DNA from: a virus
Lineage: Duplodnaviria; Heunggongvirae; Uroviricota; Caudoviricetes
Strand: one strand, 5' to 3'
DNA length: 64,000 nt
IMG/VR virus record: IMGVR_UViG_3300037466_003757
Location: 54,680-118,679 of that record
Shown here: piece after piece, positions 34,380 through 48,345 of the stretch
Numbering within the stretch: position 1 is the stretch's first letter
How the letters are laid out: each line of letters begins with the position of its first letter
Translations under genes and position numbers: made by a program
Notes under the pieces: generated by a model
What the model was told of the DNA's origin: nothing
Database searches by the model: none
The model's input: the letters and a program-made list of their open reading frames with translations, nothing else

Positions 34380-35330
34380 TTCGTGGATGGAGTGTGAACG
34401 AGTCTGTTGACGAACGGCTGTTTATTCACTGTGGTGGAGTGGGTTCGATAACCGTACATCGGGAGTTCACACCGACATTCCGTTCGAGACGGGCAGTCGG
34501 AAAAGACGAACGAGTCAGGCGTGTCCGGAATTGACGTCCGGGAGTTACCCGAGAACGTATTGGATTCGAACCAATAATACCAGCGATAACCGGAACACAA
34601 AGAGTTCGTTTTATCCCACTGTCCGTTTCAGAATGGGAGACGTAGAAAGTAGACGATATCGAACGAAAACGCATGCCAATCGGGTTTGTGTGCTCCCAAT
34701 AGCGATAACCGACTAACAAATGAGTTCGATATCGACTGCCTCCTACGTCCATAAATCGAACGTTTATCGTGTGATCGGGAGAGCCGAACGAATCGGGCGC
34801 TGCTCGGATCTGGTGTCTGATGCTCTGCCAATTGGAGCTACCGACTTGCGTCGGACGGGACTCGAACCCGTAACCATCGGATTTGATTCGATAACCGAAC
34901 AACAAAGAGTTCGACTCTCCGAATCACACGATAAGGGAGGCGGGACGCGAAAGAGGAGCAACGCCGAACGAAACGGGTGCATTGTCGGGGTTTAGAGCTT
35001 TACCAATTAAGCTACCGCCCCATGAGCGGAGCGGACCGGACTCGAACCGGTATCCCTCGTTTTCTAGACGATAACCGACTTCGCGGGGAGTTCGGCGCTG
35101 CTCGTCTTCAACGTCCCTTATTCAATTGTCAACGTACGTAATAAGGATGGGGATTCGAACGAATCGATGATAACCGATGAATTGTATTAGCAGTACGATA
35201 ACCGGAAATCGGGAGTTCGAATCCCTCTAGCCCTTACCCATCTAGTTCGTTCTAACGCCTTTGCGATCCTGGAGGAGCGTTTTTTGGCGTTTCGATCGAA
35301 CGAGATTTATCGTATCACGCTTCAGTCGAA
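34380..35330. repeat. array of tRNA-like repeat units (CGATAACCG ... GAGTTCGA) and tRNA half-like fragments
   Basis: Six or more units with GATAACCG followed 8-12 nt later by a GAGTTCGA-type T-loop; canonical 5'-half and 3'-half tRNA sequences in non-canonical order. Confidence 0.5.
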
Positions 35331-42305: not shown

Positions 42306-42761
42306 TCAATTTCCTTTCTGATCTCCGTGTACGACACGAAGTTCCAAGTGTTCCATCAGCAACGTGAACAATTCGATCTCGTTCGCTGGGAACCGGAAAA
42401 CACTGAATGCGTTTCCGTGAGTCTCATGCGACCACAATGTCTCGTTTACGTCGTACGACGGAATATCGACAGGGTCTGAATCCGGTTCGTGAATACGCTT
42501 CAGGGCGTAACCGAAGCGATAGTACAGCGGAGGCCATTGAAACAGAATGAGACCGTATTCGATCGTGTCGAACAATCGCCGAACCGTATCCACACCGTGG
42601 AACGCGATATAAGCGCGTTGCTCGGTTTCGCCCTGACACGAAAACGCGGTCTTGAATCCCGCCGTATTCAGTGCCTCCAATAGTTTTTGCAGACGTTCGT
42701 CCACTGTTACGCCTGGCCATCGCTCACCGAGTGGCACCTGTACGTGATTGTGCGTATGCAC
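42306..42761 (-). CDS. hypothetical protein
   Basis: 151 aa. Confidence 0.5.
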   Translation of the reverse strand: MHTHNHVQVPLGERWPGVTVDERLQKLLEALNTAGFKTAFSCQGETEQRAYIAFHGVDTVRRLFDTIEYGLILFQWPPLYYRFGYALKRIHEPDSDPVDIPSYDVNETLWSHETHGNAFSVFRFPANEIELFTLLMEHLELRVVHGDQKGN

Positions 42762-43145: not shown

Positions 43146-43370
43146 CCCCTTGCGCATACTCGATAGAGTGAGCTTTGAACGTTGGAGCGGCGTTGCAGCT
43201 TCTCGGGCGTTGAACCACGCCCCTGGTTCGCCACCTCCACTTTGCGCTCGAAGCGCAGCAACGCCGTCCGCAGCGACCGTTGGTCTTGACGTCGATACTA
43301 CGGAAGCTTTCTCGACGCCCATTGACAAGACTCAGACCGAACGTGCCGTGTTCGGTCCGAATCGCTTCCG

Positions 43371-43458
43371 AGGCACTGGCGGGATTCGAACCCGCATGAC
43401 CCGTTGCCGGGTACTGACGGTTTTGCAGACCGTTGACTAGCCATTCGCCCACAGTGCC
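43371..43458 (-). tRNA. tRNA-Cys(GCA)-like with long variable arm
   Basis: Acceptor GGCACTG/CAGTGCC, anticodon loop CTGCAAA, U73; 88 nt, with an extra 5-bp hairpin in the variable region and a poorly folding D-arm. Confidence 0.45.
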
Positions 43459-44374: not shown

Positions 44375-44781
44375 AGGGTCCCCGACCGCGTAGCCTACGG
44401 CCGGGGCGCTTCAATGAGTACGGTATAACGCACGACGATAGCATTTAACTCGGGAGATGAATCTAATACCATGATGTTCTGCCATTGAACTACCGGACCA
44501 TGATAGCGGTCCGGACGGGACTCGAACCCGTACGTATATGGTGTCGTCTCCGTCGGTCGATCCGTCGTGCACCGACAGGTTGCTGAGACTAGAGCAATAA
44601 CCTGAGCCTGATACGGCCCGTCTGCCTCTACCGAGTTGGGCTACCCTCGCATGGAGTGCGAAGGGCAGGATTCGAACCTGCACTGGGACGGGATACGTGT
44701 GAGCTTGAGTTTAATTCTCAGTCTCTGCCCCAACATCGTGGGGCAATCCGGGTGCTCTACGCCCGGAAATCTATGAGTCGA
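44375..44781 (-). ncRNA. cluster of degenerate tRNA-like fragments (T-arms, D-arm-like 5' halves, palindromic GGTCCGGACC)
   Basis: Two good T-arms (ACGGG-TTCGAGT-CCCGT and GCAGG-TTCGAAT-CCTGC) and a GGTCCGG-TA-GTTC-AATGGCA-GAAC 5'-half, but no acceptor pairing in any canonical order. Confidence 0.35.
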
Positions 44782-45591
44782 TTACTCGACTGTTGCGTCC
44801 TTCGCCGCATTGATCGGAGCGAACATATAGTCGAGCAGTGGCTGTGCGACCTGGTAGTCGTTTACCTCTACGTTGTTCGCTTCCTCGCGGGCGAATTTCA
44901 CCGCGTTACGTAGCTTTTCGATCCGTTCGGCAGTCTCGGCGACCGTGTCGTACGGAAGACCACCGGACAAGTTGATCTGCGACCACGTACCCTGAACGAC
45001 GTCCTCGTGAATCAACTGCACCTGAGCCGGATGCTTGTCCGTCGCCGGCGACAATTGGAACGATTTGGGCTCCTTCTTGGTCTTGAACGTCTCGACCTTG
45101 TCGGAAATCCAAACGCCCTTGGCAGCGTCGTACGTCCACGACTGTTCCGGATCGAGAACCGGGAAGTTGGAAATGAACGTAGCGAGATCGGTCAACTGTT
45201 TCTCGAGAAACAGCATGTATGTGACCGGTACGTCCGTCGCCAACGTCTGACCGTCCACGACGATGTCGGCTTTCGCGCCAGCGTTCGCTACCTCGTGGGT
45301 GAAAACAAGGTCGAACAACCGGGTGAGGAGCTTCGTGACCTCGTCCATGACGACCGCGGAACGAACCTGCACGAGCTGCGATTCGTTCGGGAAAACGTCG
45401 CCGTCCTCGGTCTTCGGCTTGTACGTCCGAATCCGACCCTTCCAGAGACCGTCCTTACTGAGGGTCCGGTAGAGTTCGGTCCATCGCGTGGTCGTCTTGT
45501 GCTTGACACCCTTCTCGACCGACACGATCTGATTCAGTTTTGTCAAGGTTTTTCCTGTCTTGTCTGATTTTCGTATCTCATATTCGCCCAT
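44782..45591 (-). CDS. hypothetical protein
   Basis: 269 aa. Confidence 0.55.
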   Translation of the reverse strand: MGEYEIRKSDKTGKTLTKLNQIVSVEKGVKHKTTTRWTELYRTLSKDGLWKGRIRTYKPKTEDGDVFPNESQLVQVRSAVVMDEVTKLLTRLFDLVFTHEVANAGAKADIVVDGQTLATDVPVTYMLFLEKQLTDLATFISNFPVLDPEQSWTYDAAKGVWISDKVETFKTKKEPKSFQLSPATDKHPAQVQLIHEDVVQGTWSQINLSGGLPYDTVAETAERIEKLRNAVKFAREEANNVEVNDYQVAQPLLDYMFAPINAAKDATVE

Positions 45592-45613
45592 GCCCTCAAA
45601 GGGATCGGGTCAG

Positions 45614-45685
45614 AGCTCTCTGCGAGGATCGAACTCGCGACCTATTGCTTACCATGCAATTACGCTACCACTGCGCCAAGAGAGC
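45614..45685 (-). tRNA. tRNA-Thr(GGT)
   Basis: Cloverleaf; anticodon loop ATGGTAA. Confidence 0.7.
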
Positions 45686-45785
45686 ATAGACGTCACAATA
45701 GCAAGATGGATATACCATGGGTGTTATGGTGACGTCAAACGTCGCATTTCTCGGTTGGATAACCAATATTTTTATGGCGACGTAG

Positions 45786-45860
45786 TAATCCCGAGTGGAT
45801 TCGAACCACCAACCTTCGCAGTCTGAGTGCGACGCCTCTGCCAAATTGGGCTACGGGATC
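45786..45860 (-). tRNA. tRNA with Leu anticodon CAG, class-I shape (short variable loop)
   Basis: D-arm GCC-CAATTTGGCAGA-GGC, anticodon loop CTCAGAC, variable AGGTT, A73. Confidence 0.55.
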
Positions 45861-45861
45861 G

Positions 45862-45934
45862 TGTCCACGGTGAGATTCGAACTCACAACAACCGACTTTT
45901 GAGATCGGCGCCTCTGCCGTTGGGCTACGCGGAC
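45862..45934 (-). tRNA. tRNA with Leu anticodon CAA, class-I shape
   Basis: D-arm GCC-CAACGGCAGA-GGC, anticodon loop CTCAAAA, A73. Confidence 0.55.
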
Positions 45935-45947
45935 TTGATAAAAAAAG

Positions 45948-46020
45948 TAGTCACGGTGGGATTCGAACCCACAACATCTTCCTTTTAAGGGAAGCGCCTC
46001 TGCCGTTGGGCTACGCGACC
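45948..46020 (-). tRNA. tRNA with Leu anticodon TAA, class-I shape
   Basis: Same D-arm architecture; anticodon loop CTTAAAA; A73. Confidence 0.55.
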
Positions 46021-46253
46021 AAAGTTATTCGAAGCATCCCGTGTCTGGGGCTACGCGTCGGTCTTCCACCGAACTTCGAATAACGATCAAGAATACAAGC
46101 GACGGTCCGGTCTATTCACTCCACTGGGTGCTTCCAGATTGCTCTGGATCTCCTGACGCTCTGCAACCGTTCTCATCTAGTGCAAGGCTCGTATTCCGTT
46201 GAAGGAAGCTGAGAACTTTGTCGCGACGACTCAGTCCACCCCTCAGCTTCCAG

Positions 46254-46326
46254 TGCGACCGGCGGGATTCGAACTCGCAATGACCTGCTTAGGAGGCAGG
46301 CGCCTTATCCGTTTGGCTACGATCGC
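46254..46326 (-). tRNA. tRNA-Arg(CCT)
   Basis: Cloverleaf; anticodon loop CTCCTAA. Confidence 0.65.
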
Positions 46327-46332
46327 TCACAG

Positions 46333-46406
46333 CACCGCCGACAGGATTCGAACCCGCATATTAACCGGAGTAGAAATCCGGGGCATTTCCGTTATGCTAC
46401 GGCGGT
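46333..46406 (-). tRNA. tRNA-Arg(TCT)
   Basis: Anticodon loop TTTCTAC; A1-U72 pair; D-arm GCAT-AACGGAA-ATGC. Confidence 0.6.
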
Positions 46407-46560
46407 AGGTGCCGACCCCCAGATGACCACTCCCTGGAATCCTTCCGATTATGAGTCGGATGCTCTTTCGTCTTACGAGGCGTGTGCGCGCAATCTCGTA
46501 ATCCTTGGTCAAACTTACCGTCGCCGCACAGCTTGGCAAGTAGTTTGAGCTAGACCGGCG

Positions 46561-46632
46561 TGCGCCTAAAGGGATTCGAACCCCTGACCTCTTCCTCCGG
46601 AGGGAAGCGCTCTTCCGCTGAGCTATAGACGC
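46561..46632 (-). tRNA. tRNA-Arg(CCG)
   Basis: Perfect cloverleaf; anticodon loop CTCCGGA. Confidence 0.75.
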
Positions 46633-46710
46633 GAAATATATGACGGTATCGAACTTCCACATCCGATACCGTCCGCCTCGCCACCGTGATTATGGAAAGC
46701 AAAGGCTAAG

Positions 46711-46783
46711 TGCGCCCGGAGAGATTCGAACTCCCAACCTTCTGATCCGTAGTCAGACACTCTATCCGTTGAGCTACGGGCGC
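46711..46783 (-). tRNA. tRNA-Arg(ACG)
   Basis: Cloverleaf; anticodon loop CTACGGA. Confidence 0.7.
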
Positions 46784-47388
46784 AGTTCCCCATCCAGTGT
46801 CCCGATGGACGGGGGTTTAACTTAGTACCGGTACACGAGCGAATGTGTGGGTCGCTCGCCATCCCCACATGAAACCGGTCGGGAACTAGCGGAAGACGGA
46901 GGTCTTGATCCCCAAGCCTGTGACAGCTCGTTCCGCTTTCGAAACGGACCCGGGCACCTACCCGGTTCGTCTTCCAGACCGCCACAGCCGTTTCAGGGGG
47001 GATTAACGGCTGTGGCGAACGATCGTAGTATAGGGCGCGCGGTGTCGGGTCGCGCACTACGATCGTCGCGGAGAATGGAGTACTCGAAACCCAAGCGGTC
47101 TATGCCACTCGTACCGCCTTCCAAGCGGCCTCTGACACCTGCCAGATTCATTCTCCAGAGCCCCCATCAGTTTGCGTCTCAGGGGCGGGAGACGTCGAAG
47201 CCGACGCACAAACCCGGGCATGTGGTCGCTGTCAGATGATTTCCCATGGTTCCCACCACGTCCGAAACTGTTGCAGAATCTGCTCGGATCCAATAACGAA
47301 ACGAAACTGCAATTTCCGCTTCTAGGAGGCTTTACGTTCGCCGACAACGGGACAATGGCCATCATCCATAGTTTGGTCAACGAACTGG
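46784..47388 (-). ncRNA. 600-nt non-coding region packed with long perfect hairpins (candidate structured RNA)
   Basis: No tRNA and no convincing ORF; 10-11-bp perfect inverted repeats at ~46978-47011 and ~47034-47080 plus other hairpins. Confidence 0.3.
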
Positions 47389-47461
47389 AGCGGATGACCG
47401 GCCTCGAACCGGCGACATTCTGCTTGGAAGGCAGACGCTCTACCAACTGAGCTACACCCGC
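47389..47461 (-). tRNA. tRNA-Gly(TCC)
   Basis: Cloverleaf; anticodon loop CTTCCAA. Confidence 0.7.
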
Positions 47462-47562
47462 ATGGTGGAATCGGAGTCCAACCCGAAACCATTTCGATGT
47501 AGGTCGCGATGACCTGGCGGTTCCTCTGCCAAAAACACCGTGCTCAGTGGTGCCCATCGAAG

Positions 47563-47644
47563 CTCCGGTACCTGGATTCGAACCAAGATAGAGGTTTCCC
47601 TCACGGATTAACAGTCCGCTGCATTGCCATTATGCTATACCGGA
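47563..47644 (-). tRNA. tRNA-Asn(GTT)-like with 15-nt variable arm
   Basis: Acceptor TCCGGTA/TACCGGA, D-arm GCAT-AATGGCA-ATGC, anticodon loop CTGTTAA, extra GAGG-GAAA-CCTC hairpin. Confidence 0.5.
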
Positions 47645-47767
47645 TTAACGCGGGGGTCGCCTACTACGACCGCAGTCAGATCTTGCATCGGGAGAGCCGC
47701 GACGCGGTTCACCGAAGTTGGCCTCCAACTGCCCGAGCGGAGTAAGGGTTTCCGCAGGCATCCGCCG

Positions 47768-47840
47768 TGCTCTCGAGAGGATTCGAACCTCCACTGACCG
47801 CCACCTCATGACGGCGCCTCTGCCGTTGGGCTACGAGAGC
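47768..47840 (-). tRNA. tRNA with Leu anticodon GAG, class-I shape
   Basis: D-arm GCC-CAACGGCAGA-GGC, anticodon loop ATGAGGT, A73. Confidence 0.55.
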
Positions 47841-47939
47841 AGATATGGACGACTAGGAGACGATCGCCGTCCATGCCCCTTACGGGGTTCACGCTCAGAC
47901 CTGAACGGGGATTGGAACCCTGTCTCCTCTGAACGATAG

Positions 47940-48012
47940 TGGAGCTAGGGAGAATCGAACTCCCGACCTTCTCGATGCGAACGAGACGCGCTACCAACTG
48001 CGCTATAGCCCC
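47940..48012 (-). tRNA. tRNA-Ala(CGC)
   Basis: G3-U70 wobble, A73, anticodon loop TTCGCAT. Confidence 0.75.
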
Positions 48013-48144
48013 ATTGACTGCGACTAGGAAACCATCGTCGCAATCGCTCCTCGTGGATGGTGAGAGTTGTCCACTTGTGTTTGGGAGGAGCAACGTTCGT
48101 GTGGTGACGGAGAGGAACTATCGGTGTGTTTCCCACGAACGTGG

Positions 48145-48217
48145 TGGAGTTACGGGGAGTCGAACCCCGGACCTTCTGCGTGCCGTGCAGACGCGCTACC
48201 ACCTGCGCTATAACCCC
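48145..48217 (-). tRNA. tRNA-Ala(GGC)
   Basis: G3-U70, A73; anticodon loop ACGGCAC has an unusual C33. Confidence 0.6.
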
Positions 48218-48273: not shown

Positions 48274-48345
48274 GCGCTTCGAAGGGACTCGAACCCCTAT
48301 TTTCCGTTTAATAAACGGATGTTCTTCCCGTTGAACTACGAAGTT
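48274..48345 (-). tRNA. tRNA-like, anticodon ATT? (possible pseudogene)
   Basis: Good D-arm, anticodon arm and T-arm, but two acceptor mismatches and A34. Confidence 0.3.

Follow-up and report, generated by a model that had tools for sequence, protein, structure and literature searches.

Four short leucine tRNA genes in the tRNA array of a phage belong to the type I tRNA-Leu family of Actinomycetota and phages

Class II bacterial leucine transfer RNAs (tRNA-Leu) have a stemmed variable region of 11-25 nucleotides (nt) and are charged by leucyl-tRNA synthetase (LeuRS) through recognition that is independent of the anticodon (PMC9976931). Specifically, the bacterial enzyme reads the discriminator base A73, U8:A14, the A15:U48 Levitt pair and G18G19 together with A20a, both the anticodon and the long arm being dispensable for recognition (PMC9976931), and minimal tRNA-Leu that lacks the arm is still charged according to Asahara (1993, 1998) and Larkin (2002), as these studies are cited in the same paper. 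A tRNA of the short kind is known from Streptomyces coelicolor, where a type I tRNA-Leu(CAA), whose variable loop has 5 nt, is leucylated by the organism's single, bacterial-type LeuRS with a kcat/Km of 6.25 s-1 uM-1, as compared to 14.2 s-1 uM-1 for a type II species, and where this type I tRNA carries the only CAA anticodon among the five tRNA-Leu species (PMC6614811). The same S. coelicolor enzyme does not charge human mitochondrial tRNA-Leu(UUR) (PMC6614811). A tRNA-Leu(TAG) with a short variable loop is also found in mobile tRNA gene clusters of Mycobacterium mucogenicum and M. phocaicum, within a multi-tRNA array that contains HNH endonuclease genes, and coexists there with a normal long-arm chromosomal isoacceptor (PMC6582537). 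In regards to M. tuberculosis, only tRNA-Leu-2, -3 and -5 have been named as long-loop species, in a numbering that reaches at least 5 (PMC11541572). Here we describe four short tRNA-Leu genes in a 64,000-nt stretch of DNA from a Caudoviricetes virus (IMG/VR record IMGVR_UViG_3300037466_003757, positions 54,680 to 118,679; this whole stretch is called the window below, and all coordinates are positions in it). These four genes belong to a known type, the type I tRNA-Leu that has been characterized in an actinobacterium and is annotated in many phages.

ARAGORN called 42 tRNA genes in the window, every one of them on the minus strand between 29808 and 53008, and four of these carry leucine anticodons (CAG, CAA, UAA and GAG). 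The four are all type I genes, namely tRNA-Leu(CAG) with 76 nt (45785-45860), tRNA-Leu(CAA) with 74 nt (45861-45934), tRNA-Leu(UAA) with 74 nt (45947-46020) and tRNA-Leu(GAG) with 74 nt (47767-47840), and they match Rfam model RF00005 over its entire length (model positions 1-71 of 71) with 56.5, 56.6, 61.5 and 47.3 bits, respectively, the gathering score being 29 bits. Parsing of the cloverleaves gave a D stem of 3 base pairs (GCC/GGC) in each gene, closing a D loop that reads CAATTTGGCAGA in tRNA-Leu(CAG) and CAACGGCAGA in the other three. Each variable loop is 5 nt long, with AGGTT in the CAG gene, TTGTT in the CAA gene, ATGTT in the UAA gene and TCAGT in the GAG gene, the last being the form that is commonest in cellular genes. 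All stems are intact, UUCGAAU forms the T loop, all four genes have A73 as discriminator, and C74 is encoded while the full CCA is not. In each case a leucine anticodon (NAG or YAA) sits within a 7-nt loop with U33, as in CUCAAAA of the CAA gene and CUUAAAA of the UAA gene. None of the four has the variable region of more than 10 nt forming a stem-loop that marks class II, and neither ARAGORN nor Rfam returned a long-arm fold or another register for them. Thus, the arm-less architecture, which the original prediction had described as four tRNAs with leucine anticodons that share the D arm GCC-CAAyGGCAGA-GGC on a 3-base-pair stem, a 5-nt variable loop and A73, is confirmed in all of these particulars by ARAGORN, Rfam and the cloverleaf parse. 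Of the tRNA callers that it had proposed as a check, ARAGORN gave leucine anticodons and no non-leucine identity.

The D-arm motif of the four genes, GCCCAA(N1-5)GGCAGAGGC, has exactly four matches in the window and none in any of 100 shuffles. Three of the genes form a tandem that in the order of transcription reads UAA, CAA and CAG with spacers of 12 and 0 nt, tRNA-Leu(CAG) beginning immediately after the 3' end of the CAA gene. The set of four is not contiguous, with four tRNA-Arg genes, one tRNA-Gly gene and one tRNA-Asn gene lying between the UAA and GAG genes. When compared to the published description of the S. coelicolor type I tRNA-Leu(CAA), the window genes share the 74-77-nt class, the 5-nt variable loop, A73 and a leucine anticodon and differ by having U48 where the S. 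coelicolor tRNA has C48 in a loop that reads ACAGC (PMC6614811). The mycobacterial clusters, which are again compared by their description, also have an arm-less tRNA-Leu in a multi-tRNA array, with the difference that they reside in bacterial genomes and contain only one such anticodon, whereas the window is from a phage (PMC6582537). Animal mitochondrial tRNA-Leu, which is likewise of type I, has a short variable loop and uses A73 and A14 as identity elements (PMC9976931), resembles the window genes in arm length only and is served by a different, mitochondrial LeuRS.

We explored how widely this architecture is distributed by searching IMG/VR and the GTDB species genomes with the D-arm motif TAGCCCAA(N1-5)GGCAGAGGC. 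A family member was defined as having this motif, U at the end of a 5-nt variable loop, A73 and 73-79 nt in total, and the four window genes show all of these. Matches to the motif occur on at least 120 viral contigs in IMG/VR and on at least 120 contigs of GTDB species genomes; the counts from both scans are lower bounds and not frequencies, and the figures and taxa that follow in this paragraph and the next are those among the matches listed. Leucine anticodons are present in 113 of the 114 motif-bearing tRNAs from IMG/VR (all 73-79 nt) and in each of the 114 from GTDB (all 74-78 nt), which amounts to 227 of 228 when both collections are pooled, all of them 73-79 nt long. The GTDB matches are mostly from Actinomycetota, including Gordonia, Nocardia, Mycobacterium, Rhodococcus, Tsukamurella, Corynebacterium, Streptomyces, Amycolatopsis, Arthrobacter, Microbacterium, Nocardioides and Acidimicrobiia; Planctomycetota and other phyla make up a minority. 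A total of 97 GTDB loci have a single tRNA gene in 8 kb, and the cellular flanks of the type I gene, as seen on a Nocardia chromosome and a Mycobacterium contig, code for Ppx/GppA, a POT transporter, an ABC/FtsX transporter and an FAD monooxygenase. Note that some of the IMG/VR matches may be host tRNA genes at prophage ends, as many nominally viral genes show the variable loop NNAGT and A26 that are the cellular signature.

The chromosomal genes have the D arm GCC-CAAyyGGCAGA-GGC and U48, identical to those in the window. However, there are several differences. The chromosomal genes are single-copy and nearly always read UAA, CAA or UAG, with anticodon counts at single-tRNA chromosomal loci of 64 for UAA, 17 for CAA, 15 for UAG and 3 for CAG or GAG, whereas CAG and GAG are among the anticodons of the four paralogues in the window phage. 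Where cellular type I genes do carry CAG or GAG, 8 of 11 are located in multi-tRNA arrays. A second difference is that the chromosomal genes are mostly NNAGT with A26, while three of the four window genes have NNGTT and all four have G26. Overall, many Actinomycetota have a tRNA-Leu on the short scaffold as a normal gene present once in the chromosome, and this form is also common among phages. The premise of the original prediction, that all bacterial tRNA-Leu are type II, is contradicted by these chromosomal genes as well as by the S. coelicolor study (PMC6614811), and its description of the architecture as unusual does not hold for a form that is chromosomal in Actinomycetota, annotated in many phages and abundant in IMG/VR.

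Deposited phage genomes also contain annotated tRNA-Leu genes of 74-78 nt with the same architecture. These include three genes in Gordonia phage Boopy, two in Gordonia phage GodonK, two in Mycobacterium phage LeBron, and two in Streptomyces phage Tomas, and the type also occurs in Rhodococcus phage Francesca; outside the actinophages there are three in the T4-like Cronobacter phage S13, and the type is seen as well in the KVP40-like Vibrio phage V07 and the rV5-like Pectobacterium phage POP15. Their cloverleaf is that of the window genes, with a D arm that is identical or almost so, U48 as the last base of a 5-nt variable loop, and A73, and in phage S13 the tandem order UAA then CAA is also that of the window. 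GodonK and Francesca each retain one longer tRNA-Leu (82 and 89 nt), whereas the leucine genes in the window are all type I. The tRNA-Ser and tRNA-Tyr genes of these deposited phages keep their long arms. In phages S13, V07 and POP15 the D arm of the type I tRNA-Leu is the same as that of the actinobacterial family. A separate observation concerns Streptomyces phage Tomas, where GenBank lists a 72-nt tRNA-Tyr(GTA) at positions 2381-2452 of that phage beside a normal one of 82 nt; the shorter gene was not called as Tyr by ARAGORN and may be an arm-less tRNA-Tyr. A search of the full-text literature found no paper on arm-less tRNA-Leu genes of phages.

Comparison of the window genes with about 1300 pooled tRNAs that cover all isotypes gave, for each gene, type I tRNA-Leu from phages or actinobacterial chromosomes as the nearest neighbors, with identities of 77-91%. 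Specifically, the UAA gene shares 91% identity with the type I tRNA-Leu(CAA) found in Gordonia phage GodonK, the CAA gene is closest to type I tRNA-Leu from Gordonia phage Boopy (84%) and from cellular genomes (80-82%), the neighbors of the GAG gene are chromosomal type I tRNA-Leu(UAG) genes of Nocardioides (80-83%), and those of the CAG gene are type I tRNA-Leu at 78-80%. The pairwise identity among the four genes is 67-76%. The same comparison bears on the possibility that the four genes are anticodon-shifted paralogues derived from some class I tRNA, for instance the neighboring tRNA-Arg(CCT) (46253-46326, minus strand), whose D arm reads GCC-AAACGGATAA-GGC and whose core is 69-71% identical to three of the four leucine genes. 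An A in the D loop of this tRNA-Arg may correspond to A20, an element read by arginyl-tRNA synthetase. However, the leucine genes are closer to one another and to type I tRNA-Leu from outside the window than to any non-leucine tRNA, and they have the D-loop ending GGCAGA, which is common to class II tRNA-Leu and is found in only 1 of 851 non-leucine tRNAs at the pooled loci, while the D loop of the arginine gene ends in GGATAA. On the nearest-neighbor and D-loop evidence we rejected descent from tRNA-Arg(CCT), which we consider to be exceedingly unlikely; the likeness of its D stem to the leucine genes may reflect an exchange of scaffolds within the array.

Conservation across the family bears on function. 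Among 274 unique family members each stem position is paired in 90-100% of the genes through four to six types of pair, which indicates selection on the cloverleaf, and several features that lie outside of the search pattern are near invariant, with A73 in 273 of the 274, U48 in 271 and a 5-nt variable loop in 255. Another alternative is that the window genes are decaying or non-functional tRNA-like sequences that have lost the arm by deletion. Nothing specific favors such decay, beyond the GAG gene having the lowest Rfam score (47.3 bits), and it is opposed by the intact stems, the canonical UUCGAAU T loops, scores that are all well over 29 bits and the strong covariation of the family over hundreds of genomes. 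The idea of pseudogenes is thus almost certainly wrong. Within the family, the four genes are members of a mobile-element branch as opposed to recent copies of host genes, because the NNGTT variable loop of three of them and the G26 of all four are both uncommon in chromosomal genes.

We also addressed what amino acid these tRNAs are likely to accept. The bases checked in the four window genes, as bases and not as tertiary pairs, are U8, a D loop of the form C-A-A-(y)n-G-G-C-A-G-A and a U at the last position of the variable loop, so that at the level of bases the LeuRS identity set of A73, U8:A14, A15:U48 and G18G19-C-A-G-A is present. Class II bacterial tRNA-Leu has this same core on a 3-base-pair D stem (GYG-RAAyyGGCAGA-CRC), along with U48, A73 and leucine anticodons, and it differs from the type I family by the length of its variable region (5 nt in the window), by G9 and R13 in place of A9 and C13, and by a GYG/CRC in place of a GCC/GGC D stem. 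The A15:U48 pair was rejected as a marker specific for leucine, as it is present in 303 of 851 non-leucine tRNAs; the specific feature is the GGCAGA ending of the D loop. Marks for the other synthetases that do not read the anticodon are missing from the four genes. The 3:70 pairs are U-A, C-G, U-A and U-A and not the G3:U70 read by alanyl-tRNA synthetase, and the long variable arm and G73 read by seryl-tRNA synthetase are replaced in all four by a short loop and A73.

Evidence on the meaning of the codons comes from the Ro60 gene of the phage (32706-34367, minus strand). In an alignment with 119 homologues, the residues found opposite to its leucine codons are leucine in 85% of cases for CTC, 77% for CTG and 89% for TTG, as compared to 81% for leucine overall; this test covers these three codons, as TTA is unused in the gene and CTT provides only two columns. 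Because these codons align with leucine at the level of leucine overall, CTC, CTG and TTG mean leucine in this phage. The original prediction had left two choices, that the phage carries miniaturized leucine acceptors or that these anticodons are charged with something else. The first of these is supported, while the second, in which short tRNAs with leucine anticodons would be charged with another amino acid and leucine codons be reassigned or blurred, is countered by the identity elements and the Ro60 codons. All that speaks for recoding is that the four genes lack the class II arm and that the set of other tRNAs in the window is unusual, with a tRNA that has an 8-nt anticodon loop, long-arm tRNAs for Cys, Asn and Glu, and no tRNA-Ser. 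Against it, in addition to the codon alignment, stand the complete LeuRS identity set, the lack of G3:U70 (Ala), of a long arm or G73 (Ser) and of G-1 (His), the leucylation of the same scaffold in S. coelicolor where it bears the only CAA anticodon (PMC6614811), and the single-copy type I UAA or CAA gene in many Actinomycetota chromosomes. Recoding was thus rejected for CTC, CTG and TTG on the Ro60 alignment, and we give mischarging of the four tRNAs next to no credence. Even when this rival is taken jointly with descent from another isotype and with decay to pseudogenes, we find it very unlikely that any one of them is right.

The window has a G+C content of 54.5% and codes for a T4-type large terminase, an AAA ATPase, the Ro60/TROVE protein and a DUF7873 protein, and the product of one large open reading frame (ORF) is about 25% identical in amino acids to proteins from Gordonia phages Sixama, GMA2, Forza and Boopy. 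A megablast search with positions 45500-48200 found no close nucleotide relative among 50,697 deposited phage records, giving only short tRNA-sized matches and one match to a spacer. The ORF at 54045-54821 (minus strand) has PE-PPE and cutinase-like domains and is similar to LysB, the mycolylarabinogalactan esterase found in phages of mycolic-acid bacteria, and the nearest cellular homologues of the phage Ro60 protein are from Nocardia with about 50-52% identity. A protein identical to this Ro60 is encoded on a JGI metagenome contig of 172,958 bp. Judged by its gene content, the window appears to be part of a large, tRNA-rich actinophage. The host is probably a member of the mycolic-acid-containing Mycobacteriales because of the LysB-like PE-PPE/cutinase ORF, the closeness of Ro60 to that of Nocardia and the distant similarity to Gordonia phage proteins.

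Overall, the four genes very probably code for functional leucine tRNAs on a type I scaffold that Actinomycetota possess natively and that occurs widely in phages. The LeuRS of the host would recognize the leucine-specific tertiary core and the 3' end with A73 and C74, and not the anticodon or a long arm, and an actinobacterial LeuRS that already charges the chromosomal type I tRNA-Leu of its own cell would be expected to accept the phage tRNAs as well. In the phage the scaffold would have spread over four anticodons by duplication and anticodon change. The UAA-CAA-CAG tandem is likely to be co-transcribed, processed by RNase P and at the 3' ends, and completed with CCA by a host enzyme, because the spacers are 12 and 0 nt and no CCA is encoded. 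Reading by wobble, CAG decodes CUG, GAG decodes CUC and CUU, CAA decodes UUG, and UAA decodes UUA and UUG, so that five of the six leucine codons are covered, as had been predicted, with CTA as the exception. In a crude set of 70 window ORFs the leucine codons are CTC (28%), CTG (24%), TTG (23%), CTT (16%), TTA (4%) and CTA (4%), and the four tRNAs, if expressed, would thereby supply readers for about 96% of the leucine codons of the phage. These include TTG and CTT, which are rare codons in high-GC hosts.

Several points weigh against this explanation. The charging of the CAG and GAG tRNAs is extrapolated from a chromosomal type I family that consists mostly of UAA, CAA and UAG genes. The CAG tRNA has A37, as do 12 of 18 type I CAG genes, and not the G37 (m1G37) that is typical of readers of CUN codons and that is present in tRNA-Leu(GAG). 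The prevalence of NNGTT loops (three of four) and of G26 (four of four) in the window also departs from the NNAGT and A26 of most chromosomal genes. Finally, E. coli LeuRS did not charge the type I tRNA-Leu of Streptomyces (PMC6614811), which indicates that acceptance depends on the enzyme.

A further rationale for the arm-less form could be that it lets leucine tRNAs of phages and arrays escape toxins or nucleases that grip the long arm of class II tRNAs. In M. tuberculosis, the toxin MenT3 anchors on the long variable loop, in that deletion of the loop abolishes modification and grafting of the long loop onto tRNA-Met confers it (PMC11541572), and the abortive-infection toxin AbiEii is inferred to prefer class II tRNAs (preprint, bioRxiv 10.64898/2026.01.19.700257). 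It is also congruent with this idea that type I readers of the CAG and GAG kind, which in chromosomes are normally class II, are concentrated in arrays and phages, and that all four leucine tRNAs in the window are type I. [quoted passage not shown] Inheritance of a host-type scaffold accounts for the data without any role in defense, and no defense system that targets tRNA-Leu via the arm was identified in this analysis. Evasion of defense is thus an unlikely rationale, and there is a correspondingly small chance that it acts as an addition to, and not a replacement for, the explanation by functional type I leucine tRNAs. In its full form it would mean that phages and arrays have moved their whole leucine decoding set, including the CAG and GAG readers, onto an arm-less scaffold that is invisible to nucleotidyltransferases or tRNases of the MenT/AbiEii type, a proposition we hold to be doubtful. 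If it were true, the members of the family that occur in gammaproteobacterial phages of the T4-like, KVP40-like and rV5-like kinds, whose hosts are assumed to have only class II tRNA-Leu, would represent a horizontally spread anti-defense tRNA cassette.

Additional analysis of the array revealed several other features, all on the minus strand. Three tRNAs of isotypes that are normally class I have stem-forming variable regions of 15-21 nt, namely tRNA-Cys(GCA) at 43370-43458 (89 nt, Rfam 52.9 bits), which has U73 and a leucine-like 3-base-pair D stem in a D arm that reads GGC-GAATGGCTA-GTC, tRNA-Asn(GUU) at 47562-47644 (83 nt, 59.0 bits) and tRNA-Glu(UUC) at 52834-52921 (88 nt, 38.2 bits). Long-arm Asn, Cys and other class I isotypes are also seen sporadically in the IMG/VR loci. 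ARAGORN called no tRNA-Ser in the 64-kb window, the 42 tRNA genes covering the 19 other amino acids, and in the crude ORF set about 7.7% of the codons specify serine. The tRNA at 51159-51234 has an 8-nt anticodon loop (UGGUACCG) in which ARAGORN reads a four-base anticodon GUAC, ambiguous between Tyr and Val, and scores 51.3 bits in Rfam; it could be of a frameshift type or otherwise aberrant. A tRNA-Asn(AUU) at 48274-48345 has an A34 that looks unmodified, the anticodon AUU being unusual for bacteria, and its Rfam match is slightly truncated (52.2 bits, model positions 3-68). A 94-nt call of tRNA-Ile(TAT) at 42553-42646 was set aside as doubtful, since it has no Rfam support even at E<=0.5 and folds poorly. 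ARAGORN calls of the same kind, with 92-96 nt and a conserved CYAGATT in the variable region, are found on seven IMG/VR contigs, and the same type of call is also found on a contig of an Elusimicrobia metagenome-assembled genome; they may represent a distinct long-arm tRNA or tRNA-like family of phage and other arrays.

Two further elements were noted. The 122-nt spacer at 47645-47766 (minus strand), which separates tRNA-Leu(GAG) from tRNA-Asn, shares 83% identity with the tRNA-Val/tRNA-Thr spacer of Gordonia phage Boopy, even though the identity between proteins of the two phages is just about 25%. It has a predicted conserved multi-hairpin fold, with changes on both sides in 10 of 34 predicted pairs, and similar elements lie between tRNA genes on three IMG/VR contigs. 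A search of Rfam gave no match, and the fold prediction points to an unannotated structured RNA of tRNA arrays. The second element consists of sub-threshold matches to the Y RNA-like YrlA family (RF02553) at 34819-35081 and 44448-44553 (both minus strand), with 34.9-42.4 bits against a gathering score of 69, which are positioned just upstream of the Ro60 gene and inside the tRNA array. This suggests a phage module of Ro60 and Y RNA like the one annotated beside the tRNA array of Gordonia phage Boopy.

In regards to what these genes mean for the phage, the four would be normal leucine tRNAs of a type that the clade of its likely host already uses, and existing pipelines already call them as tRNA-Leu. 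Their analysis raises the question of why the short scaffold is limited to readers of UUA, UUG and CUA in chromosomes while it takes any leucine anticodon in phages and arrays. It also raises the question of how type I tRNA-Leu is charged in the enterobacterial and vibrio hosts of phages S13, V07 and POP15, given that the LeuRS of E. coli reportedly rejects the type I tRNA-Leu of Streptomyces (PMC6614811). More broadly, a textbook belief is corrected, as arm-less tRNA-Leu is routine in the chromosomes of Actinomycetota and frequent in phages, including those of enterobacteria and vibrios. The literature that we found treats arm-less tRNA-Leu as a rarity of Streptomyces coelicolor; the wider pattern is under-appreciated and may merit a census.

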